From Candidatus Alloscybalousia sp. (GTDB taxonomy: Bacteria > Bacillota_I > Bacilli_A > RF39 > UBA660), in NCBI GenBank assembly GCA_045595895.1, contig JAZOBJ010000013.1, positions 1,671 to 65,670 of the forward strand: DNA of 64,000 bases, given 5' to 3'. Below the pieces are notes generated by a model. That model did no database searches. It was not told the origin of the DNA and saw nothing but the letters and a program-made list of their open reading frames with translations. The first letter of the stretch is position 1. Each line of letters begins with the position of its first letter. A program made the position numbers and the translations under genes. Shown here piece by piece: positions 4,720 to 23,195 of this stretch.

Positions 4720-4790
4720 AAATTCGACAAATTTTTACATATCTTGTCAATATTCGCTGTATCTTATTGTTGAATATTATTGTATAATAA
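4720..4790 (+). promoter_or_regulatory. spo0A upstream region: 0A-box (TGTCGAA on minus orientation at 4723-4729), a second near-match TGTCAAT at 4745-4751, and an extended -10 TGTATAAT at 4781-4788
   Basis: The sequence ttcgaca is the reverse complement of the Spo0A-binding consensus TGTCGAA. TGnTATAAT lies about 35 nt before the spo0A RBS. This suggests Spo0A autoregulation, as in Bacillus. Confidence 0.3.
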
Positions 4791-4819
4791 TACTTGCGTG
4801 GAGTACGAAAGGAGAGAAT

Positions 4820-5593
4820 ATGGACAAGATCAGAGTACTTATGATCGATGATAACATCGAGTTAGTAAGCATGATTAAGGAGTACTTTAATAATCACGCT
4901 AGTATTGAGGTAGTATTAGAAGCAAATGATGGAGAAAAAGGAATATCAGTTGCTAAGAGTTGTCAAAACGAATATGATGTAATTCTTTTAGATTTGATTA
5001 TGCCTAAAAGAGATGGTTTATCAGTTTTGGAAGACTTAAGACGTGAAAATATCGATAAGAAAGTTATTATCTTAACATCTTATAATGCTCAAGATATGAT
5101 ACGTAAGGTTTCTGAACTAGGAGTAAATTATTTTATTCTAAAACCATTTGAATTATCAGATTTAGAAAGAAGAATTGAAGATTGTCGTGAAAGTAGGAGT
5201 TATAATAATACGTCAATAGATATTTATCATAATAATTTACAAATATCTATTACTAAAATCTTACATGAACTTGGAATACCATCTCATATTAAAGGGTATC
5301 AATATATTAGAGAAGGGATATCTATTTTGTATGAAAGACCTGAAGTTATTGGTGGTATAACTAAAGAGTTATATCCTGATATAGCTAATAAGTTTGATAC
5401 TACAGTTTCTCGAGTTGAAAGAGCTATTCGTCATGCTATTGAAGTTAGCTGGAATAGGGGAGACTGGGATTTAATGGAAGAAATATTTGGTCACAGTGTT
5501 GATATTGATAAGGCTAAGCCTACAAATTCAGAATTTATAGTGACTGTTGCTGATAAATTAAGATTGGAATTTCAAAGAGATTATATTAAATAG
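4820..5593 (+). CDS. spo0A: sporulation master regulator Spo0A (response regulator receiver plus Spo0A C-terminal DNA-binding domain)
   Basis: The C-terminal domain carries the Spo0A-specific motifs [27 protein letters not shown] and [19 protein letters not shown]. The receiver domain has the expected D10/D11 and D58 equivalents. RBS aaggagag. Confidence 0.9.
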
Positions 5594-5660
5594 ATATAAT
5601 CTTTTTCTTTACAAATTTATTTAAAAGTGGTAAAATAATCACTACTTATAGGGGGATAAT

Positions 5661-7031: not shown

Positions 7032-7137
7032 TAATAAAGCATATTCATATGAATATGCTTTTTTCTTTTATATAATTGACTTTCTGTATATTAAATATTA
7101 TAATCAAATTATAAAATATGTTAGGAGGATACGATTT

Positions 7138-8412
7138 ATGGAACGAAAAATATTTTCTGATTTACTTAAATGGAAGAAAGATGTTAATAGAAAACCTTTA
7201 TTACTTTATGGCAATAAACAAATAGGTAAAACTTATAGTGCAATTGAATTTGGAGAAAAGGAATATAAAACTATTGCCTATATTAATAGTGATAATAATA
7301 CTCAGTTTTTATCTATTATGCAAAAAGAAAGAACTATTGATAAAGTTATAGCTAAAATGTCTTTATTAGTTGGTGAATCTATTTTAAAAAATGATACATT
7401 AATTATTATTGATAATGTAGTGGATGAAGATATAGTTAAAGCTATAAAAAAATTTGGAAAAGAAGCTAATGATTATCATATTATTATGATTACTTCTTTG
7501 AAAGAGAAACTTTCTGTTTTTAAGGGTGAAGAATTACAATATAAATATATGTTTCCAATGGATTTTGAAGAATATTTGATGGCCGTTGGTAATTTAGAAC
7601 TAATAGATTTTATTAGAACTTCATATCGTAATAATAAGGCTATGCCTTTTCATAGTATAGCTATGGATTATTATGAAGAATATTTAATAACTGGTGGTCT
7701 TCCAGAATCTGTATTTGCTTCTATTAATAAAGAATCTGATTTAAAAATTAAAATTATTCAACAAAAACAATTAGATAGTTATAAAAAAGAATTTTTATAT
7801 ATGAATAATTTAATTGATATTACACGTTGTAATGATGTATTAAATATAATTCCATATCAATTATTAAAATCCAATAGAAAGTTCCAATATGGTCTTATGA
7901 GAACTGGTGGTAGAAGTAAAGATTATGAAACTGCTTTAGATTTCTTATCTAATAATGGTATTGCTTATAAGTGTTATAAAATTAGTGAAGTTAAACCTCC
8001 ACTTAGTAAGTGTAAAGATCAAGAGAGTTTTAAATTATATTTAAATGATACAGGTATTTTATTTATGATGATGCATTTATCTAGAATAAAGCTATTTACT
8101 GATGATAGTTTAAAATATATTTTATATGAAAATAATTTAGCTAATACCATTATCTCTTGTGGTTATAATTTATATTACTATCAATCAGAAGGTAAAGCTG
8201 AAGTCCCTTTTGTTGTACAAACTAGGGCTGGTAAAATTATTCCTATTGAGATAGTTAATAAAAATTTATCTAAAGCTAAGTCATTATCATTGTTTATGAG
8301 TAAATTTGAAATTAATGAAGCTATTCGTTTTACTGAAGATAACTTTAGCATGAAAAAAGGAATTAAATATGTTCCTATTTATGCAGCCTTCTGTTTAAAA
8401 GAAAATTTATAA
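7138..8412 (+). CDS. AAA-superfamily ATPase of the DUF4143/AAA_14 type (COG1373-like)
   Basis: N-terminal P-loop-like LLLYGNKQIGKTY, length 424 aa, with the C-terminal DUF4143-like region. RBS aggagga. Confidence 0.5.
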   Translation: MERKIFSDLLKWKKDVNRKPLLLYGNKQIGKTYSAIEFGEKEYKTIAYINSDNNTQFLSIMQKERTIDKVIAKMSLLVGESILKNDTLIIIDNVVDEDIVKAIKKFGKEANDYHIIMITSLKEKLSVFKGEELQYKYMFPMDFEEYLMAVGNLELIDFIRTSYRNNKAMPFHSIAMDYYEEYLITGGLPESVFASINKESDLKIKIIQQKQLDSYKKEFLYMNNLIDITRCNDVLNIIPYQLLKSNRKFQYGLMRTGGRSKDYETALDFLSNNGIAYKCYKISEVKPPLSKCKDQESFKLYLNDTGILFMMMHLSRIKLFTDDSLKYILYENNLANTIISCGYNLYYYQSEGKAEVPFVVQTRAGKIIPIEIVNKNLSKAKSLSLFMSKFEINEAIRFTEDNFSMKKGIKYVPIYAAFCLKENL

Positions 8413-8500
8413 AAATTTACTAAAAAGTTAATAAAATTATTAAAACGTTGAAATAATATATATCGTTTTAATATAAAATACAACAGAAAAGAGGTAAAAT

Positions 8501-10000
8501 ATGAGACCGATTTTATTAACAATTATAGATGGTTTTGGACTTCGTGATGAAGTAAAAGGTAATGCTGTTAAATTAGCTAATAAACCTAATTTTGATATGT
8601 TGTGGAATAGTTTTCCACATTCAACATTGAGTGCTAGTGGTAGAGATGTAGGTTTGCCTGAAGGTCAAATGGGTAACTCTGAAGTTGGACATTTAAATAT
8701 AGGTGGTGGAAGAATAGTTTATCAACCTTTTGAACTTATTAATAAAAAGATTGAAGATAAAACTTTTTTTGATAATAGTCAATTAAAAGGTGTTATGGAC
8801 CATGTTAAAAATAATAATTCTAAACTACATATATTTGGACTTCTAAGTGATGGTGGTATTCATTCCCATATTAATCATATTTTTGCGTTATTAGAGATGG
8901 CTAAAAAAGAGGGTGTTAGCGAAGTTTATGTACATGCTTTCTTAGATGGTAGAGATACTTTACCTGACATAGCTTTAACCTTCTTAAAACAGTTGCAATC
9001 TGAGATGGATGAATTAGGTATTGGTAAACTAGCTGATATTTCAGGTAGATATTATTCAATGGATCGTGAGAGAATGTGGGATTTAACTAAAAAATATTAT
9101 GATTTATTAGTTAATAAAGTTGGAAATGTTGTCTTTGATTTAGAAAAATATATTCAAGATAGTTATAATAATAATATATATGATGAATTTATAGTTCCTG
9201 GTATTGTTACTTCTAGTGGTAATTTGGAAGAAAATGATGGTTTAATTTTTGCTAATTTTAGACCAGATCGTGCTACTCAGACATTTACTGCTATAACTAA
9301 TCCTGAGTTTAATGAATTTGAAACTAAAAAGTTTAGTAATATAAAATTGGTGACTATGATGCCAGTTGAGAAAAGTATAATTTCTACTAATGCTTTTTGT
9401 ATTCCTGATGTTACTAACTGTTTAGGTGAATATTTGGATAAAAATAATAAAAAAGTTTTAAGAATAGCTGAAGCTAGTAAATATCCACATGTAACATATT
9501 TCTTTGATGGTGGTAAAGATATGGAATTACCTGGTACTGATAAGATTATTATTCCAAGAAAGAATGTTGCGACTTATGATATAGCTCCGGAAATGTCAGC
9601 TAAGGAAATAACAGATAAGCTTATTCCGATTATAGAAAACTATGATGTTATTATTTTAAACTTTGCAAACTGTGATATGGTTGGGCATACTGGTAATTTA
9701 GAAGCGGCTATTACTGCTGTTGAAACAGTTGATGAATGTATTGGTAGACTATATGAAAAAATCAAAGAAATTAATGGTTTGATGATCGTAACTGCAGATC
9801 ATGGAAATTGTGAACTTATGATTGATGAAGATGATAATATAATTACATCACATACTACTAATAGGGTGCCATTTATAATATGCAATAATAATTTGAAGTT
9901 AGTAGATGGTAAACTTGGTGATATTGCGCCAACTATTCTAAAATTAATGAATTTAGAAATTCCTAGTGATATGACTGGTGATATTTTAATGAAAGACTAA
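8501..10000 (+). CDS. gpmI: 2,3-bisphosphoglycerate-independent phosphoglycerate mutase
   Basis: MRPILLTIIDGFG..SEVGHLNIGGGRIVYQ and the C-terminal metal-binding phosphatase domain ADHGN. 499 aa. RBS aagaggtaa. Confidence 0.9.
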   Translation: MRPILLTIIDGFGLRDEVKGNAVKLANKPNFDMLWNSFPHSTLSASGRDVGLPEGQMGNSEVGHLNIGGGRIVYQPFELINKKIEDKTFFDNSQLKGVMDHVKNNNSKLHIFGLLSDGGIHSHINHIFALLEMAKKEGVSEVYVHAFLDGRDTLPDIALTFLKQLQSEMDELGIGKLADISGRYYSMDRERMWDLTKKYYDLLVNKVGNVVFDLEKYIQDSYNNNIYDEFIVPGIVTSSGNLEENDGLIFANFRPDRATQTFTAITNPEFNEFETKKFSNIKLVTMMPVEKSIISTNAFCIPDVTNCLGEYLDKNNKKVLRIAEASKYPHVTYFFDGGKDMELPGTDKIIIPRKNVATYDIAPEMSAKEITDKLIPIIENYDVIILNFANCDMVGHTGNLEAAITAVETVDECIGRLYEKIKEINGLMIVTADHGNCELMIDEDDNIITSHTTNRVPFIICNNNLKLVDGKLGDIAPTILKLMNLEIPSDMTGDILMKD

Positions 10001-10016
10001 AATTAGTCTTTTTTTT
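9994..10016 (+). terminator. rho-independent terminator after gpmI
   Basis: Hairpin agactaaaattagtct followed by T8. Confidence 0.45.
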
Positions 10017-10063
10017 GACATTGTTTTTTGATTTTTTATCTTATAATACTGTTGGTGATATTA

Positions 10064-10236
10064 TGAAAGTAAAAATATTTGATTTTGAGGATGAAAAAGA
10101 TTTAGAAAAAGCTATTAATGATTTTTTAGATGATAGCATGGATGTTGTTGATATTAAATATCAAGTGTCTATGGGAATATTTAGTGAGGAACAGATATAT
10201 TGTTTTTCAGCAATGATAGTTTATGCAAAAAAATAG
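10064..10236 (+). CDS. small sporulation-type protein, Cse60-like (57 aa)
   Basis: MKVKIFDFEDEKDLEKAINDFL..VVDIKYQVS..EEQIYCFSAMIVY resembles the sigma-E-controlled 60-aa Cse60 family from memory. RBS ggtga. Confidence 0.35.
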
Positions 10237-10291: not shown

Positions 10292-11479
10292 ATGAGGGAA
10301 AGACTTATTTTTCATATTGATGTAAATAATGCTTTTTTGTCATGGACTGCTGTTGATTTATTGAAAAAAGGTTATGAGATAGATATTCGTACTATTCCAT
10401 CGGTAATTGGTGGAGATGAGGAGTCTAGACGTGGAATAGTGACTGCTAAAAGTCCGGTAGCTAAGAAAATGGGGGTAGTAACAGCAGAGCCACTTTATAT
10501 GGCTAGAAAAAAGTGTCCAGGTTTAAAAGTGTTTAAGGGTGACTATGAACTTTATCATCGTGAATCTAATAAATTGTATAAATATTTCTGTAATTTTACA
10601 GATAAAATAGAGCGTTATTCTGTAGATGAATGTTTTTTAGATATGACTGGTACTGAGCTTTTATATCCTGATCCTATTGAACTTGCTTATAAGATGAGGG
10701 ACGAAATATATGAGAAGTTTGGTTATACTGTTAACATTGGGATAGCTAATAATAAATTGTGTGCTAAGATGGCAAGTGACTTTGAAAAACCTAATAAAGT
10801 ACATACTTTGTTTAGTTATGAAATAGAAAAGAAAATGTGGCCTCTTTCAGTTACAGAATTATTTATGGTAGGTAAGTCTTCTAGTAAAATTTTAATGGAA
10901 ATAGGTATTAAAACAATAGGTGATTTAGCTAAAACAGATATTATTTTTTTAAGAAGAAGATTCAAGAGTCAAGGTGATATGATGCATGAATATGCTAATG
11001 GTATTGATTTTAGTGAAGTGGAAGGAAATAGAGCTAAAAGTAAAAGTATTAGTGTTACTGAGACTTTGCCTGTTGATATTGATTCGATTTCGGGGTTTAA
11101 AAAAATATTACTTCCTCAAGCAGATAAAGTTGGTAAACAAGCTAGACGTGAGAAACTTTATGCTAAAACTATAGCTATTATCTTTAAAACAAGTGATTTT
11201 GTTTCTTATACTCATCAAATGAAATTAGTAAATCCTACAAATGTTACTTCTGAAATATATAATTATGCATTAGAAATTTTGGAAAAAGGTTGGAGAGGGG
11301 AGCCTCTTAGATTGATTGGAATAAGACTTGCTGATTTTACTAATGATAATAGTAAACAAATATCATTATTCGATACAGTTAAAGATACTGGGAATGATAA
11401 AATTCAGGAAGTACTTGATAACATTAGTGATAAATATGGTGATGGTGTTATTATGCCGGCATCTCTTAAGAAAAAATAA
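10292..11479 (+). CDS. dinB: Y-family DNA polymerase IV
   Basis: IFHIDVNNAFLSWTAVD with a catalytic D.. motif, SVDECFLDMTG and the little-finger domain. RBS gggtgg. Confidence 0.8.
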   Translation: MRERLIFHIDVNNAFLSWTAVDLLKKGYEIDIRTIPSVIGGDEESRRGIVTAKSPVAKKMGVVTAEPLYMARKKCPGLKVFKGDYELYHRESNKLYKYFCNFTDKIERYSVDECFLDMTGTELLYPDPIELAYKMRDEIYEKFGYTVNIGIANNKLCAKMASDFEKPNKVHTLFSYEIEKKMWPLSVTELFMVGKSSSKILMEIGIKTIGDLAKTDIIFLRRRFKSQGDMMHEYANGIDFSEVEGNRAKSKSISVTETLPVDIDSISGFKKILLPQADKVGKQARREKLYAKTIAIIFKTSDFVSYTHQMKLVNPTNVTSEIYNYALEILEKGWRGEPLRLIGIRLADFTNDNSKQISLFDTVKDTGNDKIQEVLDNISDKYGDGVIMPASLKKK

Positions 11480-11490
11480 TGGGTGATATA

Positions 11491-12414
11491 ATGGAATATA
11501 ATGATAGATTTATTAATGAGTTAATAGATAACGAAATTAAGTTTTGTGATTCTATTTGTGATAAATATAAATATCCTGATAATATTGGCCATTTACTTTA
11601 TATAATTATTCCGGCTTTTATTTTAAAGTATGGTATTAATAATAAGAGTATAATTGAAAAATGTTTTTATGATACACCGATAATAATTGATGATATACAG
11701 GAGCAGATACACCAAGCTTATTATTTTGGTGTTCCAAGATATCAGGGGGATAGTATAGTTGTTGATAAGGGGATAGTGTTAAAAAAATATAAAAATATTT
11801 CTCTTATACAACTACTTGATAATTTGATCCATGAGTTTAATCATGCTATTAATTCCATTCAAAATGAAATAGTTATTAATGATTTTGTTTTAGTCAGAAC
11901 AGGTATTGTTTATAATTGTTTTGATATTAGAACTTTAAAGTTTATTGAAAAGGGTTTTGAGAGTATTTTAGAAGAAGTAATTAATACTAAACAAACTGAA
12001 GAAGTAATTGATATTGTTAAAAGTTTTTCAAAATATAATCTTAATAATACAGTTGTTTCTTATACTTTATATTCTATAAATCATATGACAGATATTAATT
12101 ATCGTTCAAAGAGTTATTTATTAGAATCGTTGGTATGTCGTAGGCTTTTGGAAAATAAAACATTTATTTCTACTTTTGAAACTTTAAGATTTGAGGGAAA
12201 AATTGATGATATAAATGTTTTTTTTGATGATATTGTTGGTAAAAAAGGTTCACTTTCTGAGTTATCTCAGTTGTTGAATGAGTCATTAAAATTACAGAAA
12301 AGTTTAAGCAATAAGAAATGGTTTAGGAAAAGAATAATGAATAAAATAAGAAGTATTAATATTGAGGCTTTTAAAATAGTTGAGTGTTTTGATAATAATA
12401 CTGTATATAAATAA
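11491..12414 (+). CDS. hypothetical protein with an HExxH motif (putative zinc metallopeptidase-like), coupled to dinB
   Basis: LIHEFNHAINS contains HEFNH. Its start overlaps or abuts the dinB stop (taATGggtgatataATG). Confidence 0.4.
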   Translation: MEYNDRFINELIDNEIKFCDSICDKYKYPDNIGHLLYIIIPAFILKYGINNKSIIEKCFYDTPIIIDDIQEQIHQAYYFGVPRYQGDSIVVDKGIVLKKYKNISLIQLLDNLIHEFNHAINSIQNEIVINDFVLVRTGIVYNCFDIRTLKFIEKGFESILEEVINTKQTEEVIDIVKSFSKYNLNNTVVSYTLYSINHMTDINYRSKSYLLESLVCRRLLENKTFISTFETLRFEGKIDDINVFFDDIVGKKGSLSELSQLLNESLKLQKSLSNKKWFRKRIMNKIRSINIEAFKIVECFDNNTVYK

Positions 12415-12436
12415 AAAGACTATTTTTTTAATAGTC
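12405..12436. terminator. bidirectional terminator between convergent genes
   Basis: Palindrome aagactatttttttaatagtctt with T-runs on both sides. Confidence 0.5.
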
Positions 12437-12941
12437 TTTTTTCTTTTTTATAAAGTTTTTTAATCTCTGACAATAACATATATGGTATTTGGTATATTGG
12501 GATGTTTTGATTTGTAATTATTCTTTTAATTGTATTATCTTGATGTTCGATAATTATACTTTTATCCATTTCTTCTTTTTGTTCCCATGTTATTTCAGGT
12601 TGTTTATTTATTTTTCCTGTTATAAAAATGATACAATGGATATATTGAGAGAAATACGATATTCTTTCTTTTTCTGTTGGAATATAAGAATTTATTAGTT
12701 CACAAATGTTATTTAAACTTGTTAGTGATTTCATATCAAAATTATTTTGGTTCCATTTTAATAATTTAAGAATAGAATAGCTAAATAAACTATGTTCCAA
12801 TAAATTTATGTTTTCTAGTTTATCATTATGATAAAAATTTAATTCTATTAAATTATCACAACATTCTTTCATTACTGTTATTGATTCGCTTTCATAATTT
12901 ATTCTTTTTGTATACTTGATTTCCACATTGTTATTCTTCAT
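12420..12941 (-). CDS. hypothetical protein (173 aa)
   Basis: Clean ORF convergent with the dinB operon. No recognisable motifs. Confidence 0.4.
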   Translation of the reverse strand: MKNNNVEIKYTKRINYESESITVMKECCDNLIELNFYHNDKLENINLLEHSLFSYSILKLLKWNQNNFDMKSLTSLNNICELINSYIPTEKERISYFSQYIHCIIFITGKINKQPEITWEQKEEMDKSIIIEHQDNTIKRIITNQNIPIYQIPYMLLSEIKKLYKKEKRLLKK

Positions 12942-13055
12942 AATTTACCTCTTTTTCTGTTTATTATAATTATTTTTCTTGTTTTGTAAATAGAAATGTA
13001 CCAAAATTGAAAAAAATATGATATTATTATATTTAGAGGATCTGGAGGAAATAGT

Positions 13056-14690
13056 ATGAAAAAGAATTCCTTTATGCAAGGTGCGTTTATAGCTACTCTT
13101 GGTATTGTTTTAAGTAAGATTTTGGGAATTATTTATGTTATACCATTTTATGCCATTATTGGGGAACAAGGTGGTGCTTTATATGGTTATGCATATTCTA
13201 TTTACTCAATCTTTTTAGGCATATCACAGGCTGGTATTCCACTTGCAATCAGTAAAATAGTTAGTGAATATAATGTTTTAGGATATTATGATGCTAAAAG
13301 AAGAACTTTCCAACTTGGGAAAAAGGTTCTTTCAATGCTTGGTGTTGTTTGTTTCCTTATAATGTTTATTTTCGCTAGGGGTATAGCTACTGTTATTATT
13401 GGTAATGTTACTGGTGGTAATACAATTGAAGATGTTACTTTTGTAGTTAGAGTTATATCTTTTGCAGTGCTTGTTGTACCATTTCTTAGTATTTATAGGG
13501 GTTATTTACAGGGACATAAATTTATCACACCAACTTCTATTAGTCAGGTTTTAGAACAAATTGTTCGTGTATTGGTCATAGTGTTAGGAAGCTTTTTAAC
13601 TCTAAAAGTATTTAATTTATCTTTAACTACTGCAGTTGGTGTAGCAGTATTTTCTGCTACTATAGGTGCTTTAGTATCTTACTTTTATTTAGTATTTAAA
13701 ATTAGAAAAGATAAGAAAGCATTAGAAAAAGAAACAATGAAAGTTGAAGAACCAAAGATTGCTGATAGAGAGATAATTCAAAAGATAATTATATATGCAT
13801 TTCCATTTATTATGATAGATGTATTTAAATCATTAATTAATTCAGTTGATGTATTTATGTTGGTTAGAGTGTTAGTAAATGGTATTGGTTATACAGCGAT
13901 AGAAGCTGAGTCTATTATGAGTGTTGTTTCAACATGGGGACATAAATTAAATATGATTATTGCAGCTATATCTTCAGGATTAATGGTTAGTTTAATACCA
14001 CACTTAACTGCTAGTTTTGTAAAAAAAGATATGGATGATGTTAAGAAGAAAGTTAATCAAACATTACAGGGGTTATTATTCTTTACTGTTCCTATGACTG
14101 TGGGATTATCAATACTGGCTAAACCCGTTTGGACTATATTCTATGGTACAAGTAATTTTGGACCTAATGTTTATCAATTCTACGTATTTGTAGCACTGGC
14201 TACTACAGTGTTTACTGCTAGTGTTACTATTCTTCAGTTATTAAAAGAGTATAAACAAGTATTTATTTGTCTAATTACTGGTTTATTAACTAATGCATGT
14301 TTGAATATCCCATTGTTATATGCATTTGATTATATGGGATTTCCGGCTTATTATGGTTCAATATTATCAACAATTCTAGGATACTTTGTATGTAGTTATT
14401 TAGCATTACGTTATGTTAATAAAAAATATGAAGTTAGCTATGAAGATACTATTAGAAAAGTGTTTAATATTGTTTCAATTACATTAGTAATGGTAATTGT
14501 GTTACTTGGATTAAAATATATCTTACCATTTAATTCTACCAGTAGATTATTTAGTATTTTATATGTAGTTATATTTAGTATTATTGGTGGTGTTATATAT
14601 TTTGGCATTACATTTAAGACTAAGTTAATATATGATGTATTTGGAAAAGGGAATGTTTGTAAAATATTAGATAAATTTAGAAAAAGGTGA
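13056..14690 (+). CDS. MOP-superfamily flippase (MurJ / SpoVB-like lipid II or polysaccharide flippase)
   Basis: 544 aa with about 14 TM helices and an N-terminus MKKNSFMQGAFIATLGIVLSKILGIIYVIPF typical of MurJ/SpoVB. RBS ggaggaa. Lies immediately upstream of the FemAB genes. Confidence 0.6.
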   Translation: MKKNSFMQGAFIATLGIVLSKILGIIYVIPFYAIIGEQGGALYGYAYSIYSIFLGISQAGIPLAISKIVSEYNVLGYYDAKRRTFQLGKKVLSMLGVVCFLIMFIFARGIATVIIGNVTGGNTIEDVTFVVRVISFAVLVVPFLSIYRGYLQGHKFITPTSISQVLEQIVRVLVIVLGSFLTLKVFNLSLTTAVGVAVFSATIGALVSYFYLVFKIRKDKKALEKETMKVEEPKIADREIIQKIIIYAFPFIMIDVFKSLINSVDVFMLVRVLVNGIGYTAIEAESIMSVVSTWGHKLNMIIAAISSGLMVSLIPHLTASFVKKDMDDVKKKVNQTLQGLLFFTVPMTVGLSILAKPVWTIFYGTSNFGPNVYQFYVFVALATTVFTASVTILQLLKEYKQVFICLITGLLTNACLNIPLLYAFDYMGFPAYYGSILSTILGYFVCSYLALRYVNKKYEVSYEDTIRKVFNIVSITLVMVIVLLGLKYILPFNSTSRLFSILYVVIFSIIGGVIYFGITFKTKLIYDVFGKGNVCKILDKFRKR

Positions 14691-14694
14691 TATT

Positions 14695-15951
14695 ATGGAA
14701 TTTATGATATTAACAGAAGATGAATATAGACAATTTATAAATGGTAATAGTATGACATCTTTTATGCAAACTGTGGAGCTTTCTAATTTAAAAAAAGAAT
14801 TAGGAAGTAAAGTTCATTTTGTAGGAGTTAAAAAAGGTAAAAAAGTAGTAGCAGGTTCTATGATATTAGAAGATTCTACTATTCTTAATAAAAAGATGTT
14901 TTATGCTCCACGTGGTTTGATTGTTGATTATCATAATAAAGAACTTCTTGCATTTTTTACTTGTGAGTTAAAGAAATATATAAAGATGAATAATGGTTTT
15001 ATATTAACGATTGATCCTAATGTTATTTATAGGGTTAGAACTAGTGATGGTGAAATTGATCCCAATAATAATGCTGATGATGAGTCAGTTGATAATTTGA
15101 TTAGTTTAGGGTATAAGCATCATGGTTTTAATCTATATCTAGATACTATGCAAGCTAGATGGTGTTATTTATTTAGTTTAGATGAAGATTATGAAACTAA
15201 AAAATCTAAATTTTCAAAGAGTACTAGAAAAAATATTGACTTTTGCAAGAAAAAAGGTTTAATGGTAAGAGAGGGTACTATTGATGATTTAGCTGTTATG
15301 GCGGAGATTTTTGAGATAACTTCTAAAAGAAAAGATTTCTTTTCTAGGAGTTTAGAATATTATCAAAAAATGTATTATCATTTGAAAAATTTAATGACTA
15401 TATATATAGCTTATTTAGATCCAGAAATTTATTATAATCATACATTAAGTTTATTAGAAGTAGCTAAAAAAAATTATGAAGTTGTTTTGGATAAGATGGA
15501 AAAAGATATGGTTGGTAGTAAACTTATTAATCAAAAAGAAACAGCTTTGAAACAAATTTCTAAATATGAAAAAGAATTGGAAAAAGCTAGCAAGTTTAAG
15601 AAAGATTACCCTAATGGTAAGGATATTGGTTGCTTGTTATCTCTTAGATCTGGGGATGAGTATTTAACTTTATCAAGTGGTACTTTAGCTGAATATAGAG
15701 AATTTACTCCTAAGTATTTAATGTATGAGCATCATATTAAAGAGGCTTATAATGAAGGATTTAAGTACTGTAATTTTTATGGAATAACAGGGGACTTTAA
15801 TCCTAATGGTAAGTATTATGGAATATATGAATTTAAAAAAGGATTTAATGGTAATGTCATTGAATATATAGGACAATTTGAATTAGCAGTTACTGGCTTT
15901 TATTCGGTTTATAAAATATTAAAAAGAATAAAGAAATTTATTGGGAGGTAG
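14695..15951 (+). CDS. FemAB-family peptidoglycan interpeptide-bridge aminoacyltransferase, paralog 1
   Basis: FemX/FemA-like GNAT-fold N and C domains with a coiled-coil insertion (KETALKQISKYEKELEKA) and YGITGDFNPNGKYYGIYEFKKGFNG at the C-terminus. Confidence 0.75.
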   Translation: MEFMILTEDEYRQFINGNSMTSFMQTVELSNLKKELGSKVHFVGVKKGKKVVAGSMILEDSTILNKKMFYAPRGLIVDYHNKELLAFFTCELKKYIKMNNGFILTIDPNVIYRVRTSDGEIDPNNNADDESVDNLISLGYKHHGFNLYLDTMQARWCYLFSLDEDYETKKSKFSKSTRKNIDFCKKKGLMVREGTIDDLAVMAEIFEITSKRKDFFSRSLEYYQKMYYHLKNLMTIYIAYLDPEIYYNHTLSLLEVAKKNYEVVLDKMEKDMVGSKLINQKETALKQISKYEKELEKASKFKKDYPNGKDIGCLLSLRSGDEYLTLSSGTLAEYREFTPKYLMYEHHIKEAYNEGFKYCNFYGITGDFNPNGKYYGIYEFKKGFNGNVIEYIGQFELAVTGFYSVYKILKRIKKFIGR

Positions 15952-15953
15952 TT

Positions 15954-16457
15954 ATGAAGGATAATTATGTATTTGAATATATGAATGAAAATGATTTTAG
16001 GGTAAAAGAAAGATCTGTTCGTAAGTATAATATGCTTGCATATAAAAAAATGATGTTTGAATATTATCCTAAATTAAAAACAGGTGAGTTTTTAGGTACT
16101 CAGATTAGTGAGAATAAAGATGGTAGTGTTTTATATGAGCTACCACTTCCTACTGATGAAATGTTTAGTAAGGTTCATGGTGTAATTACACTTCATTATA
16201 CTGTTTATTTAGATAAGAAGGTTATCTTACTTACTAATATCACACCTGAAGGTATTTTAGAAGAAGGTCATCGTACTGAGCTTGGTGCTTATAAAGGTGT
16301 AATGGTTTCTAAAACAAATAAAGAAAAAGATATGTTTAAAATCAATTTACTTAATATGATGAATAAAGGTTATGGTAGTCAATTTGCATTAGTTACTATT
16401 GTATCTGCAATGACAGTTTTAATGATTAGTGCAATAGTTTTCTTTATTTTAAGATAA
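15954..16457 (+). CDS. hypothetical protein with a C-terminal membrane anchor
   Basis: 167 aa with a C-terminal TM helix (FALVTIVSAMTVLMISAIVFFIL). RBS gggagg. Confidence 0.4.
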   Translation: MKDNYVFEYMNENDFRVKERSVRKYNMLAYKKMMFEYYPKLKTGEFLGTQISENKDGSVLYELPLPTDEMFSKVHGVITLHYTVYLDKKVILLTNITPEGILEEGHRTELGAYKGVMVSKTNKEKDMFKINLLNMMNKGYGSQFALVTIVSAMTVLMISAIVFFILR

Positions 16458-16477
16458 TAAAAAAAATAAGATTCATT

Positions 16478-17752
16478 TTAGTGAATCTTATTTTTTATAT
16501 TCTTTAATAGTTTGTATATTTTAAATGCTAGGTTATATATGATATATAATTTTTTATTTATTACTAAATCAAATTCTCCAATAAGTTCAACTACTTCGGC
16601 ACCAAATCCTCTTTTAAAATCAAATAATCCGTAGTTTTTAGATTCTTTTTTAAAGTCACCATCAATTCCGTAGAAATTGAATGTTTGATAGTTATATTCT
16701 TTTGCATAATTAATCATTTGCCATTGTAGTAAATATTGTGAGTTATATTTCATGAATTCTTTATATGAAGCACCAAGTAGATACACTAATTGATTTCCAT
16801 ATAACATATATAATCCACCAGCTATTATTTTAGTATTACCGTATTTTTCTTTATGTTCTTTTAAGTCATTAATTCTTTTTTCGAAAGATTTTGTTTCATT
16901 TTCAAGTTCATTTAATTGGTTTTGTTTTCTTGGATTATCTTTCATTTTTTCTATTTTTTCTTGTAGTTCTTTGTATTCTGCTTCAGTTTTTTCTAGAAGT
17001 TCTTTAAAGTTTATTTCTACTAATAGAACTTTTACTAAATTATCTTTACTTAGGACATCATAAATGTTTTGATAATAAGATAACGGTCTATCGATAAATT
17101 CTCTTCTATCGGCTGTATGTTTCATTAGTGCTTTAAATTCATTTAAATCTTCTCGTTTACATTCAATGACTCTTAAACAGTTCTTTTCACTGTTACGGAT
17201 TGACCATCTAGTAGTGGCTCTCATATCTTTTAGAATCTCATCTGTAGTTTTGTCTTCTATATTAAGCACTGATAACCATCTTGGTTCTAAGTCTTTTTTA
17301 TCATCCATAGTTATATAAAACCCTTGATGAGTAAAACCTAATTCTTTTAATTTGGTTACTAATTTATCATTTTTAGTATTTTCTATTGGTTCACCATTAA
17401 TATCTCTTTCTTGGTATTTAACATAGGGATTAATCTTTAAAAAAAGAGCATTTTTATCTTTTAAATAACTTTTAATTTCGTTAGTGAATGTTTCCAATAG
17501 ATCTAAATTATTATAATCTAATAGAAAACCACGTGGTGCGTATACCATGTTTTTATTTATTCCTTTTATGTTTTTAAATAATAGAACAGTAGCAGCTACT
17601 ATTTTATTATTTTCTTTGATACCAACCATTTTTCCTTGCCAGTTATTTTCTTTTTTTATTTCAATCCAATATGGGCTTTGAAAGAATAGAGAGTAGGGAT
17701 AATCTTTAGAAAATTCTATAAATTCTTCTTTTTCTAGTTCAATTAATTTCAT
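16478..17752 (-). CDS. FemAB-family aminoacyltransferase, paralog 2
   Basis: YAPRGFLLDY, a coiled-coil insert and YGIDGDFKKESKNYGLFDFKRGFGA. Confidence 0.75.
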   Translation of the reverse strand: MKLIELEKEEFIEFSKDYPYSLFFQSPYWIEIKKENNWQGKMVGIKENNKIVAATVLLFKNIKGINKNMVYAPRGFLLDYNNLDLLETFTNEIKSYLKDKNALFLKINPYVKYQERDINGEPIENTKNDKLVTKLKELGFTHQGFYITMDDKKDLEPRWLSVLNIEDKTTDEILKDMRATTRWSIRNSEKNCLRVIECKREDLNEFKALMKHTADRREFIDRPLSYYQNIYDVLSKDNLVKVLLVEINFKELLEKTEAEYKELQEKIEKMKDNPRKQNQLNELENETKSFEKRINDLKEHKEKYGNTKIIAGGLYMLYGNQLVYLLGASYKEFMKYNSQYLLQWQMINYAKEYNYQTFNFYGIDGDFKKESKNYGLFDFKRGFGAEVVELIGEFDLVINKKLYIIYNLAFKIYKLLKNIKNKIH

Positions 17753-19035
17753 TTTTGACCTCTTTTCATTTTAGCCATTTTTTTAATTATATTACGATAT
17801 ATTGGTACAAGTTTTGTGAATACAAAATACATTGGTTTATTAATTATGTAATCAAATTCACCTGTGAATTCAACGTAATCTCCACCAAATTTCTTTTTAA
17901 ATTCATGAAGACCCATTAATGGATTATTGTTCCTTAAATCACCTATTGTACCAAATTGGTCATATATTTTTAGGCCTTTATCATAATAATATTTTATATG
18001 TTCCTTGTATGTTTTATAGTTTGTGTATGTATCAGTTAAAATATTATGATTTCCAGCATATAATACCCAAGCTTTATTTCCATATTCAATGATAAAGTGA
18101 GCACTTAGTGTAATATTATTATCATATTCTGTTCTTAGACTAATATATTTTTCTAAATCTGAATTGATTTTATTTAATCTTTTTTGTATTTCTTGTTTTT
18201 TTGTATTTTGGCTCTTACTTAGATTTTCTGTTGGTAGTTCATTTAGTTCCTTTTCTAAAACAGTTTTAGTGTTAGTTTGAACATTTATAATTTTGTCTAG
18301 ATTTACTGTTCCTAAGAAGATGTTGCATGAATTATCTTGGTTCCATATTTCATATAGTGATTTATAATACTGTTCATTATGTGTTATAAAGTCTTTTCTG
18401 TTTTCAGTTATAATCATTAAATTATAAAAAGTGTTAATATCATTTTTTGTTCCTATTTGAACATTAATAAATAAATCTTCAGCTTTTTTTATTCTTTGTT
18501 TTGTTGTTTTAGAGAAGTTGTTTTCAATTTCTTCCCAATTTTTTTCAAAGTTAATTCTAAATGTATATCTTGGTTGCATTGTTTCAAAGTTTTTAGTAAA
18601 ACCTAAATGTTTATATTTTAACTTTTTTAATATATTAAATTCTTTAGTGTTGTTTGTTATGATTTTGTTACCATTTATATCTTCGCTATTGTAGATTAAA
18701 TCAGGATCTATCTTGAAAAAAATAGCTTTATTTCTTTTAGAATAATTATTTAATTCTTTAGTGAATTCTGTTAATAATTCCTCGTTATCATAATCTAAAA
18801 CAAATCCACGTGGTACATAAAAGTAACACATTCCAAGTGGTAATTTTTTTTCTAAAAGAAGTGCAGTTGCGACTAGTTGGTTGTTGTCGTCGACTAATCC
18901 TACATAATGGGGAAATAAATTTTTTTCTTTTTTAGAAAATTCACCCCAAGCATAAGATTGTAAAAAATGGCTTTTTTTATGATTTTTAACAAACTCTTCA
19001 TATCTATCTTTTTCTACATTTTTTATAAATTTCAT
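17749..19035 (-). CDS. FemAB-family aminoacyltransferase, paralog 3
   Basis: YVPRGFVLDY, a coiled-coil insert and FGTIGDLRNNNPLMGLHEFKKKFGG. ATGA overlap with paralog 2. RBS ggtga. Confidence 0.75.
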   Translation of the reverse strand: MKFIKNVEKDRYEEFVKNHKKSHFLQSYAWGEFSKKEKNLFPHYVGLVDDNNQLVATALLLEKKLPLGMCYFYVPRGFVLDYDNEELLTEFTKELNNYSKRNKAIFFKIDPDLIYNSEDINGNKIITNNTKEFNILKKLKYKHLGFTKNFETMQPRYTFRINFEKNWEEIENNFSKTTKQRIKKAEDLFINVQIGTKNDINTFYNLMIITENRKDFITHNEQYYKSLYEIWNQDNSCNIFLGTVNLDKIINVQTNTKTVLEKELNELPTENLSKSQNTKKQEIQKRLNKINSDLEKYISLRTEYDNNITLSAHFIIEYGNKAWVLYAGNHNILTDTYTNYKTYKEHIKYYYDKGLKIYDQFGTIGDLRNNNPLMGLHEFKKKFGGDYVEFTGEFDYIINKPMYFVFTKLVPIYRNIIKKMAKMKRGQK

Positions 19036-19105
19036 GTTATCACCATTAATAGTATAACATTTTTTAATTATTATAAAAAGATGTTGTTTAGATTAACATC
19101 TTTTT

Positions 19106-19330
19106 TTACATCATATTATAGCTGTTTGGTTGGTAGTTAGAAGTATAATTATCATTTAATGGCATTGGTGTATTTTCTAACTTCATTAGTTTATTTTGTA
19201 ATTTCATTACTTCTTTTTCTAAATTATAAACCCTGTTTTCAAGATTTTTTATTTCTTGGTGAATATTTATGTTGGGATTAAAATTAGGGTTTTGATTTTG
19301 AAAAAAGAATGGATCGATACTATTATTCAT
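19106..19330 (-). CDS. small Asn-rich coiled-coil protein (74 aa)
   Basis: Low-complexity N/P-rich ends with a central coiled coil (NLENRVYNLEKEVMKLQNKLMKLEN). Divergent from trmB. Confidence 0.3.
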   Translation of the reverse strand: MNNSIDPFFFQNQNPNFNPNINIHQEIKNLENRVYNLEKEVMKLQNKLMKLENTPMPLNDNYTSNYQPNSYNMM

Positions 19331-19387
19331 GTAACAACTCCTTTATTTATTTTATTATATGTTATATAATTTATGTTGGTGATATAT

Positions 19388-20032
19388 ATGAGACTTAGAA
19401 ATGTAAAAAATAAACAAGAAATTATGGATAATTCTAATTATCTTATTTTGGAACCTAAACGATATTTTGGGAAATGGAATGATGTCTTTGGCAATATTAA
19501 TCCTATTCATATTGAAGTTGGTACTGGTAAGGGTAATTTTATTATTGGAAAGGCATTAGCTAACCCTAATATTAATTTTATAGGTATTGAAAAGTTTGAT
19601 AGTGTTATAGCTAGGGCTTTAGAAAAAATTCCTGAAGGTCTTAATAATCTTAAAATGATTAGAATGAATGCCTTAGAAATAGACGAAGTATTTGAACATG
19701 AGGTAGAAACTATTTATTTGAACTTTTCTGATCCATGGCCTAAGAAAAGATGGCATAAGAGAAGACTTACTAGTTATGTATTCTTAGAAAAATATGATTC
19801 TTTATTTAAGGGTAAATGTCACATTATTCAAAAAACAGATAATATGGGGCTTTTCGAGTATTCTATATGTTCACTTAGTACTTATGGTTACATAATAGAA
19901 AATATTTCACTTGATTTACATAATAGTGAGATAGAAGGTAATATTATGACTGAGTATGAAGAAAAGTTTTCTAAGAAGGGCAATCCAATTTATTATTTAG
20001 AAACTGTAAAGAAAGATAAAAAAATAAAATAA
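19388..20032 (+). CDS. trmB: tRNA (guanine46-N7)-methyltransferase
   Basis: Near-identical motif set to Bacillus TrmB: GKWNDVFGN.NPIHIEVGTGKGNF...YLNFSDPWPKKRWHKRRL...DNMGLFEYS...SLDLHNSEIEGNIMTEYEEKF. Confidence 0.85.
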   Translation: MRLRNVKNKQEIMDNSNYLILEPKRYFGKWNDVFGNINPIHIEVGTGKGNFIIGKALANPNINFIGIEKFDSVIARALEKIPEGLNNLKMIRMNALEIDEVFEHEVETIYLNFSDPWPKKRWHKRRLTSYVFLEKYDSLFKGKCHIIQKTDNMGLFEYSICSLSTYGYIIENISLDLHNSEIEGNIMTEYEEKFSKKGNPIYYLETVKKDKKIK

Positions 20033-22625: not shown

Positions 22626-23195
22626 ATGGCTATTGATTATTATAGAGATTTGTTAAATAAAACTAGGTACATAGATTCTAGAATAAAAGATACAGTTTTT
22701 TTCGATTTATGTTGTGAACAGTATATAAATCAAAAATATAATAATTGTCAATGTATTGTTGAAGTACCTAGTATTGTTAAATTTAAATCTAGGAATTTGG
22801 CTAATGCTGGATTGGGAATAAGATATGAAAGTTTATCGAAGAAGGTTATTCAAATGAATGGAAATTATTGTTTAACATATTCTGAGGTTAGACAATTTAA
22901 TTCTAAGCATAATATTGTTAATCTAGATATTGAAATTGAATTTTTGTTTGGAGAAAAAATTAAAATTTCTGCTTCTAAAAAGAATTATGGTGTAATTTTA
23001 AAGGTTAATCATTATAAAGTTTCTGAGATTGATAATTCATATGTTCCTTATGCTCACATTCCAACCACTGCTATTGAGGATTTTCATTTGATACCATATG
23101 GTGAAATATTTATTGGATGTTATCCTCAGACAGTACAGATGTTTGAAGATTATTATAGTGGTGATCTTTATTCTAGAAAAGTCTTAAAAAAATAA
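22626..23195 (+). CDS. hypothetical protein (189 aa)
   Basis: Clean ORF. RBS aggggga. Confidence 0.4.
   Translation: MAIDYYRDLLNKTRYIDSRIKDTVFFDLCCEQYINQKYNNCQCIVEVPSIVKFKSRNLANAGLGIRYESLSKKVIQMNGNYCLTYSEVRQFNSKHNIVNLDIEIEFLFGEKIKISASKKNYGVILKVNHYKVSEIDNSYVPYAHIPTTAIEDFHLIPYGEIFIGCYPQTVQMFEDYYSGDLYSRKVLKK

Follow-up and report, generated by a model that had tools for sequence, protein, structure and literature searches.

The MOP-Fem module described here, found in a low-GC (~27%) uncultured gut member of the class Bacilli with endospore genes, is a polymorphic cassette in which a MOP-superfamily gene stands beside three genes encoding FemAB-family aminoacyltransferases (Fem1, Fem2 and Fem3). 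Related MAGs carry deeply divergent versions of the cassette at the same chromosomal site, and the flanks of these versions are equally conserved. The most probable function, to which we give a probability of roughly 0.7, is that of a housekeeping cell-wall module, in which the Fem enzymes add a short peptide bridge to lipid II and the MOP protein flips lipid II. This kind of pathway is already known; what is new here is the occurrence of divergent cassette versions between conserved flanks, together with the swap of the FemX-like gene.

The MOP gene and the three Fem genes are adjacent in the loci L001-L004, L011, L012 and L013, with those of L011 standing together in a different neighbourhood, and the module is kept across the whole spore-gene-bearing lineage. 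Identity between cassette types is 53-56% for MOP and 46-50% for Fem1, as against 79-95% within a type. The other cassette version is rearranged, with four Fem genes and a MOP that has diverged along with them. Inside this four-Fem version, the FemX-like gene has been exchanged as a whole, in a gene-precise swap. In L009 and L010 the cassette site contains a second MOP, which is very divergent. The functional linkage of MOP and Fem is indicated by gene adjacency and parallel divergence. The trmB gene borders the cassette in L001-L003, L008-L010 and L024, and a 74-aa ORF is kept beside trmB in L001-L003 and L008-L010, regardless of cassette orientation. The Pfam search gave no match for this ORF, which is a conserved flank gene outside the module.

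In the window, i.e., the whole 64-kb stretch of DNA that was analysed, the ORF check reproduced exactly the coordinates first given for the five ORFs of the locus (Table 1), and the ATGA overlap claimed for Fem3 and Fem2 was seen by direct reading of the sequence. The gaps are 4 nt from MOP to Fem1 and 2 nt from Fem1 to the 167-aa ORF, and the genes form two convergent transcription units, MOP-Fem1-(167-aa ORF) and Fem3-Fem2, with a common hairpin end. The RNA fold of this hairpin has a dG of -17.7 kcal/mol (z -3.7; 0/200 shuffles fold as well), and it is likely a bidirectional terminator common to both units, which the terminator scan missed because its stem has too few G-C pairs. The hairpin behind the 74-aa ORF folds with a dG of -15.4 kcal/mol (z -3.6), and the element TGTTATACT that follows it, read directly from the sequence, is a putative Fem3 promoter. 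A putative extended -10 promoter stands upstream of MOP as well (Table 1), and the consensus promoter scan gave no enrichment as compared to shuffles. The 167-aa product had been described as a small membrane-anchored protein, and the hydropathy scan accordingly gave a single C-terminal TM segment (147-165). It is probably a bystander and not a pathway component: its fold is like that of RelE/ParE toxins, relatives in other places do not adjoin Fem genes, and L011 has the MOP-Fem module without it. Spo0A, SpoIVA and SASP, all previously placed in the window, were found there, and recU and ezrA belong to its wall-making context; murE is not in the 64-kb window, and no tRNA genes, riboswitches or natural-product genes were found near the module.

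Table 1. Features of the MOP-Fem locus and its surroundings in the 64-kb window
Feature	Position	Strand	Evidence and remarks
Spo0A	4820-5593		281 bits, cut-off 200
Cse60	10015-10236		
Putative extended -10 (TG-a-TATTAT, 13019-13027) and GGAGGA RBS (13044-13049)	13019..13049	+	5' of MOP gene; sequence read directly, elements assigned by eye
MOP-superfamily protein, 544 aa	13056..14690	+	~14 TM; probably YtgP-type MurJ lipid II flippase
Fem1, FemAB-family aminoacyltransferase, 418 aa	14695..15951	+	PF02388 307.5 bits, full length; FemA 1LRZ 167 bits
167-aa tail-anchored protein	15954..16457	+	RelE/ParE-like fold; co-transcribed here
AT-rich perfect hairpin	16461..16496	.	A run on one side, T run on the other
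Fem2, FemAB-family aminoacyltransferase, 424 aa	16478..17752	-	PF02388 374.2 bits; FemA 1LRZ 223 bits
Fem3, FemX (FmhB)-like transferase, 428 aa	17749..19035	-	PF02388 262.1 bits
Hairpin terminator of upstream 74-aa ORF (19105-19075), then extended -10-like element (19059-19051)	19051..19105	-	Before Fem3
74-aa coiled-coil ORF, N/Q/Y-rich	19106..19330	-	Divergent from trmB; called gene in L012
trmB	19373..20032	+	NCBIfam TrmB 179.8 bits, cut-off 132; right-hand flank marker of cassette site
Alpha/beta SASP	33097-33327		
SpoIVA	40513-42000		692 bits, cut-off 460
Class A PBP	47107-49743		Wall-making neighbour

The identification of three FemAB paralogues was borne out, as PF02388 matched all of them end to end with E values of 1e-78 to 1e-112 (gathering score 24). 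The alignments of Fem1, Fem2 and Fem3 to S. aureus FemA (1LRZ) and FemX (6SNR) cover the full length, coiled-coil arms included, and the best solved structure for Fem3 is FemX 6SNR (152 bits, versus 126 for FemA). Weissella FemX aligned to Fem3 residues 10-233 and 310-404 only, and Fem3 therefore has an extra arm of ~75 aa. The preliminary description was thus right that all three proteins have the coiled-coil arm, but not in using the arm as a marker of FemA/FemB against FemX/MurM, because the coiled coil is also present in S. aureus FemX (residues 235-297) and in the MurM model (242-293) (PMC8280954); it is missing only in the Weissella-type FemX of 335 aa. All 38 aligned sequences keep the equivalent of Phe304-Lys305 of Weissella FemX, one of them as Tyr-Lys, and the PRG motif is kept in all except the three type II Fem1 copies (PQG); Fem1 of the window has both motifs, catalytic FK and PRG. 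The entire Fem2 orthogroup has Asn at the position of Weissella FemX Asp108, and the Fem3 orthogroup is without the Arg211 equivalent; either change could alter activity.

On the question of tandem duplicates or distinct orthogroups, the pairwise identity of Fem1, Fem2 and Fem3 is just 28-31%, which makes them old paralogues and not tandem copies, and they fall into separate orthogroups in the tree. In the NJ tree, Fem3 fell into one group (bootstrap 74) with the Fem protein of B. mycoides and FemX of S. aureus, and has the DPD and KAW.LY motifs in common with both; Fem1 and Fem2 formed separate groups (bootstrap 100 each) on the FemA/FemB side; the deeper nodes had bootstraps of 59-60. The staphylococcal FemA, FemB, Lif and Epr proteins formed their own clade (bootstrap 100) with Fem1 and Fem2 outside. 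The proposed resemblance to the staphylococcal FemX-FemA-FemB pathway therefore holds as far as there are three distinct long-type enzymes, one of which goes with FemX; neither Fem1 nor Fem2 is an orthologue of staphylococcal FemA/FemB, which speaks for parallel evolution by independent duplication and not for the same pathway. S. aureus FemX adds the first bridge residue. By its grouping, Fem3 is probably the adder of the first bridge residue here as well, and Fem1 and Fem2 are probably the bridge elongators. The Fem2 orthogroup also takes in the single-copy homologues of L005-L007. These related lineages have no Fem gene within 10 kb other than that of the Fem2 type, and it could therefore be Fem2 instead of Fem3 that starts the bridge.

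The position of Lif and Epr, bona fide FemAB members that fall with Fem1 and Fem2 on one side of the tree, raises the alternative that one or more of the paralogues are resistance or immunity factors that shift the bridge composition against the bridge-specific peptidoglycan hydrolases of competitors or phages, with the variability of the cassette being the trace of an arms race. Close relatives do differ sharply, in three versus four Fem genes and in the FemX-like swap, as such factors might, and Epr adjoins the gene of its cognate M23 endopeptidase. However, no M23/lysostaphin-like hydrolase gene adjoins the module, either in the window or at the other loci examined, every type I genome keeps all three paralogues, 74-84% identical, in a core-gene-like manner, and the Fem genes are chromosomal, beside a flippase gene and with no association with plasmid or bacteriocin genes. 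We consider this alternative unlikely.

The 14-TM MOP protein first described was recovered in the hydropathy scan as ~14 hydrophobic segments. Its strongest Pfam match was Polysacc_synt (86 bits), and MurJ PF03023 scored 37.1 bits (cut-off 27.4), so that of the earlier designation as a MurJ/SpoVB-like flippase the MurJ-family part stands. The best NCBIfam match was SpoVB, but its 149.5 bits are far under the equivalog cut-off of 372.3, and the assignment as SpoVB was rejected; the cut-off of the proteobacterial MurJ equivalog is also above the score of MOP, and no specific equivalog model exists for its type. SpoVB, YkvU and YtgP have been treated as one family (PMC3533761), and YtgP is the MurJ of B. 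subtilis (PMC12096821). The best matches in the plasmid collection were 'polysaccharide biosynthesis protein' entries of Bacillus, Priestia and Listeria, and in the Listeria record the homologues carry a peptidoglycan-biosynthesis GO term. In Bacillus sp. and Listeria, trmB follows these homologues at a distance of ~7.5 kb on the same strand, and because MOP likewise stands just upstream of trmB, it is probably the housekeeping vegetative YtgP-type MurJ. With an identity to these homologues of only 34-36%, lipid II flipping by MOP is a prediction from family and synteny.

That the best NCBIfam match is SpoVB and that the window is rich in sporulation genes would also suit a sporulation-specific flippase, in a module that makes or modifies the peptidoglycan of the forespore, in its germ cell wall or cortex, instead of that of the vegetative cell. 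Field et al. (PMC10868615) reported that RF39 and ML615J-28 are mostly without recognisable spoVB, and therefore one MOP might serve both roles. The failed equivalog argues against this, as does the trmB-upstream position, which is the neighbourhood of the vegetative paralogue in Bacillus and in non-sporulating Listeria. Upstream of both MOP and Fem3 the extended -10 elements are sigma-A-like, as assigned by eye, and no sigma-E- or sigma-K-like motif was seen by eye in either region. The cortex peptidoglycan of studied species is not known to carry Fem-type bridges, and we hold a sporulation-specific role to be quite improbable. It is very improbable that the Fem-like enzymes act off peptidoglycan, on a peptidyl-nucleoside or other natural product, next to a Wzx-type polysaccharide flippase by chance: natural-product pathways do include FemAB-fold tRNA-dependent transferases, the strongest Pfam match of MOP is a generic one and the second MOP of L009 and L010 is very divergent, but no NRPS, PKS, nucleoside-antibiotic or glycosyltransferase genes occur within 10 kb on either side, all three Fem proteins are long-form with FemA/FemX by far the best matches, and MOP stays together with the Fem genes and has diverged in parallel with them.

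Branched peptidoglycan made from aminoacyl-tRNA is the most reasonable prediction from the sequence; the order of the enzymes, their amino acids and the length of the bridge belong to the prediction, as do flipping by MOP and expression in vegetative cells. In the housekeeping pathway proposed here, Fem3 would move the first amino acid from aminoacyl-tRNA onto lipid II at the cytoplasmic face of the membrane, with the side-chain amine of the position-3 diamino acid (Lys, Orn or LL-DAP) as acceptor, Fem1 and Fem2 would next extend or diversify the branch, MOP would flip the branched lipid II outward, and PBPs would take the branch as acceptor to give indirect cross-links. Walls of the mDAP type are usually directly cross-linked. 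An mDAP-type pathway was predicted for uncultured Bacilli orders, possibly that of this host, by Field et al. (PMC10868615), which counts against a bridge. A bridge had been called unusual in an endospore former, which is overstated: an LL-DAP-Gly bridge is on record for spore-forming C. perfringens (PMC7999503), a gene for a FemAB protein is carried on a megaplasmid of B. mycoides, and the module is conserved across the spore-gene-bearing lineage.

Among known systems, the Fem proteins resemble S. aureus FemX (FmhB), FemA and FemB in PF02388, a length of ~420 aa, two GNAT-like subdomains, the coiled-coil arm and the Phe-Lys motif, and the set resembles the pentaglycine pathway in having three paralogues, one FemX-grouped and two on the FemA/FemB side. 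The identity to the S. aureus Fem proteins is only 23-33%, and the Fem genes are clustered here with a flippase gene, whereas the S. aureus record examined has femAB after trpA, and fmhB and murJ of S. aureus lie elsewhere. The MOP protein is like B. subtilis YtgP (MurJ) and SpoVB in family, ~14 TM segments and a length of ~540 aa, and its gene precedes trmB at a short distance, like the homologues of Bacillus sp. and Listeria, but unlike YtgP and SpoVB it shares an operon with a Fem gene and varies between relatives. Weissella viridescens FemX has the same catalytic core, with the Lys305/Phe304 equivalent, and both GNAT-like halves align, although the matches reach only 49-58 bits, with none for Fem1 at E<=0.001; unlike the window proteins, it has 335 aa without the arm and acts on soluble UDP-MurNAc-pentapeptide. 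Lif and Epr, which belong to the FemAB family and alter bridge composition, are an example of additional Fem paralogues being accessory and variable, but they are plasmid-borne, with epr beside an endopeptidase gene, and nested in the staphylococcal FemA/B clade, whereas the Fem genes of the window are chromosomal, conserved within a cassette type and without a hydrolase partner. By description, S. pneumoniae MurM/MurN and E. faecalis BppA1/BppA2 also belong to the FemAB family and attach short two-residue bridges to lipid II step by step; the module differs from both in its three or four paralogues and linked flippase gene. MurM has been modelled with the same coiled-coil arm, and pneumococcal murM is highly mosaic through recombination (PMC8280954). 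This mosaicism parallels the allele swaps at the present cassette site, where, unlike in mosaic murM alleles, a whole gene has been replaced and the gene number has changed.

The best-supported model for the module made up of the MOP gene, encoding a 544-aa MurJ-family membrane protein, and the three FemAB-family genes beside it (Fem1, Fem2 and Fem3) is a pathway in which a FemX-like initiator and two elongating or diversifying transferases act on lipid II and a MurJ-type MOP carries out the export, a reading to which we give a probability of about 0.7. Fem3, the FemX-like protein, would act as the initiator on lipid II, the two further transferases would elongate or diversify the branch, all of them with aminoacyl-tRNA donors, and the MurJ-type MOP would then export the branched precursor. 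We infer the order of action, the amino acids and the bridge length in this model, and Fem2 could be the initiator instead, given the single Fem2-type genes in the homologous loci L005-L007 of relatives. Pathways of this type, in which Fem transferases are combined with a flippase of the MurJ family, belong to textbook knowledge of the cell wall, and automated annotation already gives these proteins the name of peptidoglycan bridge-formation enzymes (JGI).

The ORF map agreed exactly with the coordinates of all five genes in the preliminary description, and its 4-nt gap between MOP and Fem1 and its ATGA overlap of Fem3 and Fem2, 4 nt long, were both found; 2 nt separate Fem1 from the ORF of the 167-aa protein. 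The two convergent units meet at a perfect AT-rich hairpin set between an A run and a T run (RNA folding, dG -17.7 kcal/mol, z -3.7), and orf74, an ORF of 74 aa near trmB that lies upstream of Fem3, is terminated by its own hairpin according to the folding. On the 3' side of the orf74 hairpin, TGTTATACT forms an extended -10-like element, followed by a GGTGAT ribosome-binding site ahead of Fem3, and a TG-a-TATTAT element with a GGAGGA site lies 5' of MOP; both elements are putative promoters, judged by motif. No sigma-E- or sigma-K-like motif was seen by eye upstream of MOP or Fem3. The consensus scan for promoters and terminators gave no enrichment over shuffles and missed the AT-rich hairpins, which were recovered by folding.

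Positions of the features in the window and in the homologous loci of relatives
Feature	Sequence	Position	Strand	Remark
Glycolytic gene string	window	453-10000		interrupted
pgk	window	453-1649		glycolytic string
Flippase-like membrane protein	window	1658-2677		after pgk
GT4 glycosyltransferase	window	2674-3918		overlaps tpiA
tpiA	window	3899-4561
gpmI	window	8501-10000		glycolytic string
Conserved ORF	window	11479-12414	+	no or borderline family
Conserved ORF	window	12420-12941	-	no or borderline family
MOP	window	13056-14690	+	ORF map
Fem1	window	14695-15951	+	ORF map
167-aa ORF	window	15954-16457	+	ORF map
AT-rich hairpin	window	16461-16496		RNA folding
Fem2	window	16478-17752	-	ORF map
Fem3	window	17749-19035	-	ORF map
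orf74	window	19106-19330	-
Conserved ORF	window	22626-23195	+	no or borderline family
Conserved ORF	window	24714-26513	+	no or borderline family
RNase P class B RNA	window	51066-51409		Rfam
ftsY-ffh region	window	57822-62310
HerA/FtsK-like ATPase	window	59185-60939		between ftsY and ffh
TyrS	L003	2899-4191
Extra MOP-like gene	L009	3507-5099
Extra MOP-like gene	L010	3567-5096
281-aa ORF	L010	12707-13552	+	last Fem gene to orf74
Fem3, Fem2, Fem1, MOP unit	L011	8718-14407
YhcG/DUF1016 nuclease-like gene	L024	5004-5897	-	upstream of cassette

The GC content of the window is about 27%. The RNase P RNA was the only Rfam match and no tRNA gene was found in the window, so it holds no T-box, riboswitch or dedicated tRNA. 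The sporulation genes reported earlier were recovered, Spo0A and SpoIVA above their equivalog cut-offs and an alpha/beta SASP, and Cse60 is also encoded; a class A PBP gene adjoins recU, and EzrA, RNase J1 and RNase Y are present as well. By this gene content, the window is core chromosome of a wall-making member of Bacillota with sporulation genes. No murE lies in the window. In the glycolytic gene string, pgk is followed by a flippase-like membrane protein and a GT4 glycosyltransferase resembling monoglucosyl-diacylglycerol synthase, and spo0A, rpoD and an AAA_14/DUF4143 ATPase lie between tpiA and gpmI. The HerA/FtsK-like ATPase (584 aa), which shares the space between ftsY and ffh with a 96-aa ORF, matched the anti-phage-associated HerA weakly (159 bits against a cut-off of 800). 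Four conserved ORFs, among them the pair hyp311 and hyp173 on the left of the cassette, have no family assignment or only a borderline one, and the sole match of one of the four, a 599-aa protein downstream of tyrS, was DUF2283 (22.9 bits, just under the 23-bit cut-off). The product of orf74, which is kept divergent from trmB in relatives, is unannotated and has zero Pfam matches; its sequence is N-, Q- and Y-rich, has a coiled coil at the centre and ends in ...NYQPNSYNMM, and it may be a small protein of regulatory function or one resembling spore-coat proteins.

Fem1, Fem2 and Fem3 match PF02388 (FemAB), the family of tRNA-dependent peptidoglycan aminoacyltransferases, with 307.5, 374.2 and 262.1 bits, respectively, against a gathering score of 24, and the matches are full-length, from profile positions 1-2 through 402-405 of 406. 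Whether the three are tandem duplicates or distinct orthogroups, a check proposed in the preliminary description, was decided for the latter: they are 28-31% identical to one another and form separate orthogroups across relatives with a bootstrap of 100 each, which rules out recent tandem duplication. Within the lineage, five Fem orthogroups were obtained with bootstrap 100 each in a neighbour-joining tree of 38 sequences, 418 columns and 100 bootstraps, which had few named references, namely S. aureus femA and femB, the FemAB gene of a B. mycoides megaplasmid, lif and epr, all from the plasmid collection. Among solved structures, S. aureus FemA was the best match of Fem1 (167 bits) and Fem2 (223 bits), and S. 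aureus FemX (6SNR) was that of Fem3 (152 bits versus 126 for FemA). S. aureus FemX, the B. mycoides protein and Fem3 make up one group of the tree, at a bootstrap of only 74; Fem1 and Fem2 are both placed on the FemA/FemB side, yet outside the staphylococcal FemA/FemB/Lif/Epr clade (bootstrap 100), and orthology with staphylococcal FemX, FemA and FemB, paralogue by paralogue, was not recovered among these 38 sequences. The plasmid collection held no close relatives of the Fem proteins, the nearest homologues being at most 34% identical. It is unlikely that some of the Fem paralogues are Lif/Epr-like immunity factors, because no partner hydrolase gene adjoins the module in the loci examined and the Fem genes are conserved like core genes.

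The motif equivalent to Phe304-Lys305 of Weissella FemX, which we take to be catalytic, is aromatic-Lys in 38 of the 38 aligned sequences, as FK in Fem1-3 of the window and as YK in one relative. The Fem2 orthogroup has Asn (INP) at the equivalent of Asp108, where Weissella FemX has a DP motif, and the Fem3 orthogroup has His-Asn at the equivalent of Arg211, where the other Fem proteins have x-Arg. Each orthogroup carries its own substitutions near the active site, which may reflect distinct specificities or activity determinants, a pattern that fits but proves nothing. The alignments of Fem1-3 with FemA and S. aureus FemX run continuously through the coiled-coil segments, in line with the coiled-coil insertion described earlier for all three proteins and predicted here from alignment; in long-form enzymes this helical arm separates the two GNAT-like halves. 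Weissella FemX aligns to Fem3 residues 10-233 and 310-404 only, from which an extra arm of about 75 aa follows for Fem3. The insertion had also been taken as a mark of FemA/FemB against a shorter FemX/MurM type, and this did not hold, since S. aureus FemX (residues 235-297) and the MurM model (242-293) have a coiled coil as well (PMC8280954); among the enzymes compared, the arm is present in the lipid II-acting ones.

MOP had been described as a MurJ/SpoVB-like flippase, of which the MurJ part was retained: PF03023 (MurJ) was matched above threshold (37.1 bits vs 27.4, profile positions 47-436 of 451), Polysacc_synt of Pfam was also matched, and hydropathy gave about 14 hydrophobic segments. 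A SpoVB identity was ruled out, since TIGR02900, though the best NCBIfam match, reached 149.5 bits against an equivalog cut-off of 372.3. The proteobacterial MurJ equivalog TIGR01695 stayed below its cut-off (25.7 vs 235.55 bits), and no YtgP-type-specific model was among the NCBIfam matches. The closest annotated homologues are the 'polysaccharide biosynthesis protein' of Bacillus, Priestia and Listeria with 34-36% identity over the full length, those of the Listeria record being tagged with a peptidoglycan-biosynthesis GO term, and the plasmid collection held no homologue closer than 36%. Two whole chromosomes are filed in the plasmid collection, that of Bacillus sp. N5-665 (where 6 places matched and the best was taken) and that of Listeria monocytogenes, and in both the best-matching MOP gene precedes trmB by 7.3-7.6 kb in the same orientation; by their annotation, these genes are presumably ytgP/murJ. 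In the window, the Fem genes and orf74, together with the 167-aa ORF, stand between MOP and trmB. SpoVB, YkvU and YtgP belong to one family (PMC3533761), and the MurJ of B. subtilis is YtgP (PMC12096821). The trmB synteny, the homologues and these family relations suggest that MOP is probably the housekeeping YtgP-type MurJ. A sporulation-specific SpoVB module is even harder to credit than immunity factors, because the best NCBIfam match does not attain its equivalog cut-off and the synteny is that of the vegetative paralogue, and an acceptor other than peptidoglycan, to which the gene context lends no support, is very improbable.

The closest loci in the genome collection all belong to uncultured gut MAGs; an exact-sequence look-up of the window Fem2 gave no record, and a 99%-identical Fem2 was found in the same gene order on an ENA metagenome contig of the same species (L012). 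In L001-L004 the module is arranged as in the window, between dinB and the left-flank ORFs hyp311 and hyp173 on one side and orf74 and trmB on the other (type I). In L008-L010 the flanks are conserved to an equal degree, and the module lies on one strand with four Fem genes (type II), accompanied by an extra MOP in two of the three loci (L009 and L010). The global protein identity of the flanks is 62-85% in all comparisons but the close pair L009-L010 (80-89%). For MOP it is 81-84% within type I and 84-94% within type II versus 53-56% between the types, and for Fem1 79-95% within a type versus 46-50% between types; the window Fem2 shares 37-43% with the two extra Fem genes of type II and has no type II orthologue. 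The type II MOP scored 171.7 bits against TIGR02900 (SpoVB). Faster evolution alone is insufficient to explain these values, because L008 and L009 share 64-77% in the flanks, a distance equal to that between either of them and the window, and still reach 84-88% in the cassette genes. The identities indicate one site with two deep cassette types.

Between L009 and L010 the nucleotide identity is 84-95% through MOP and Fem1, falls to 37-66% exactly over the FemX-like gene and then returns to 81-97%. The L010 version of this gene belongs to a separate, well-populated FemX-like lineage of 404-417 aa, which holds the same slot in the metagenome contigs L024-L027. A 1-kb insertion is also found at the cassette edge of L010, and its 281-aa ORF matches Rpn (recombination-promoting nuclease/putative transposase) weakly, with 39 bits below a cut-off of 52.1. 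In L011 a type I unit of Fem3, Fem2, Fem1 and MOP about 80% identical to the window lies in an unrelated neighbourhood of CmpB-like, DUF4358 and MBOAT genes, which reflects either relocation of the module or an assembly or binning artefact of the MAG. We conclude from these comparisons that MOP and the Fem genes behave as one functional unit, which is polymorphic through whole-cassette and single-gene replacement. The dinB-trmB interval might then be a 'bridge-type' locus for peptidoglycan, akin to the loci for capsules or O antigens, in which cassettes (a Fem set with its co-adapted MurJ) and single Fem genes are swapped by recombination between conserved flanks, so that close relatives differ in cross-bridge chemistry; we propose this tentatively, at somewhat less than even odds. 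If it is true, bridge-specific endolysins of phages, hydrolases that serve as bacteriocins or peptidoglycan sensors of the host could exert selection, and the step-wise co-divergence of MurJ and Fem would suggest a flippase tuned to the branch structure of lipid II.

Other variation was observed at and around the site. In L024, the gene immediately upstream of the cassette is YhcG/DUF1016 nuclease-like, and nuclease genes at cassette edges may be linked to cassette variability. The extra MOP-like gene, located between hyp173 and the 167-aa gene, is 38% identical between L009 and L010, while the rest of those genomes is 80-95% identical; the family search gave no informative match and almost no signal for it, and the site thus seems to have a second hypervariable slot at this position. 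The left flank with hyp311 and hyp173 evolves fast, with 38-62% identity among most relatives and at most 70% in the close pair L009-L010. The TyrS of L003 is 62% identical to that of the window, versus 79-80% in L001, L009 and L010, and L003 shows the usual conservation in its remaining flank genes; its tyrS may have been replaced.

The 167-aa protein is probably a bystander rather than a cross-bridge component. Hydropathy bore out the earlier description of a small membrane-anchored protein, with one C-terminal TM. Zero Pfam or NCBIfam matches were obtained for it; an alignment-based structure model predicted a RelE-like alpha/beta fold, as in the RelE/ParE toxin superfamily, and the single-sequence AF2 model was uninformative (pLDDT 48.6). 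No antitoxin gene is apparent beside it in the window, where Fem1 and the convergent Fem2 are its neighbours, or in the type II loci, where hyp311 or the extra MOP lies upstream and the main MOP downstream. Of its homologues elsewhere, two were examined and neither lies beside a Fem gene, and the fusion partners of the domain are DUF6020 and a zinc ribbon only. The gene is the most conserved of the region in relatives (81-90%); the type II loci have it upstream of MOP, and L011 lacks it.

The organism may belong to one of the uncultured Bacilli orders RF39, RFN20 and ML615J-28, for which Field et al. predicted a mix of species with and without walls, some sporulating and some not, and an mDAP-type pathway, and found spoVB often absent in RF39 and ML615J-28 (PMC10868615). 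The statement that such a module is unusual in an endospore former was overstated, because the spore former C. perfringens has a bridged peptidoglycan with LL-DAP-Gly (PMC7999503) and a FemAB gene is present on a megaplasmid of B. mycoides. In the literature, we came upon no spore-gene-bearing lineage for which three or four Fem paralogues are documented, and nothing on bridges of Clostridium innocuum. For the cortex of spore formers whose vegetative wall is bridged, a classical precedent is Lysinibacillus sphaericus, in which the vegetative wall is of the Lys-D-Asp type and the cortex contains mDAP. From the module, a branched peptidoglycan made in a tRNA-dependent way is predicted for an uncultured lineage of gut Bacilli with reduced genomes; the orders in which this organism may be placed were modelled as mDAP-type with reduced wall machinery. 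How susceptible a wall is to endolysins, lysostaphin-like enzymes and beta-lactams depends on its bridge structure, which also influences NOD/PGRP recognition by the host, so that strain-level bridge polymorphism among gut commensals would bear on the host range of phages and on immune signalling. The cassette variants, in which Fem genes number three or four, the FemX-like gene has been swapped and MurJ has diverged along with the set, are a natural experiment, which could be used to map the determinants of Fem specificity and the discrimination of MurJ among branched lipid II species.

As compared with Weissella FemX, which is without it, Fem3 carries the arm of about 75 aa. The resemblance to the FemX-FemA-FemB pathway of S. 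aureus, proposed in the preliminary description, holds for the layout of a FemX and two elongators and for the place of Fem3 near FemX, but not for Fem1 and Fem2 as FemA/FemB orthologues, and since these two lie outside the staphylococcal clade, the similar layout is of independent origin. The mosaicism of pneumococcal murM (PMC8280954) is similar in spirit, whereas the lineage of the window swaps whole genes and cassettes, and the cassette polymorphism with a co-diverging MurJ may be the new part.
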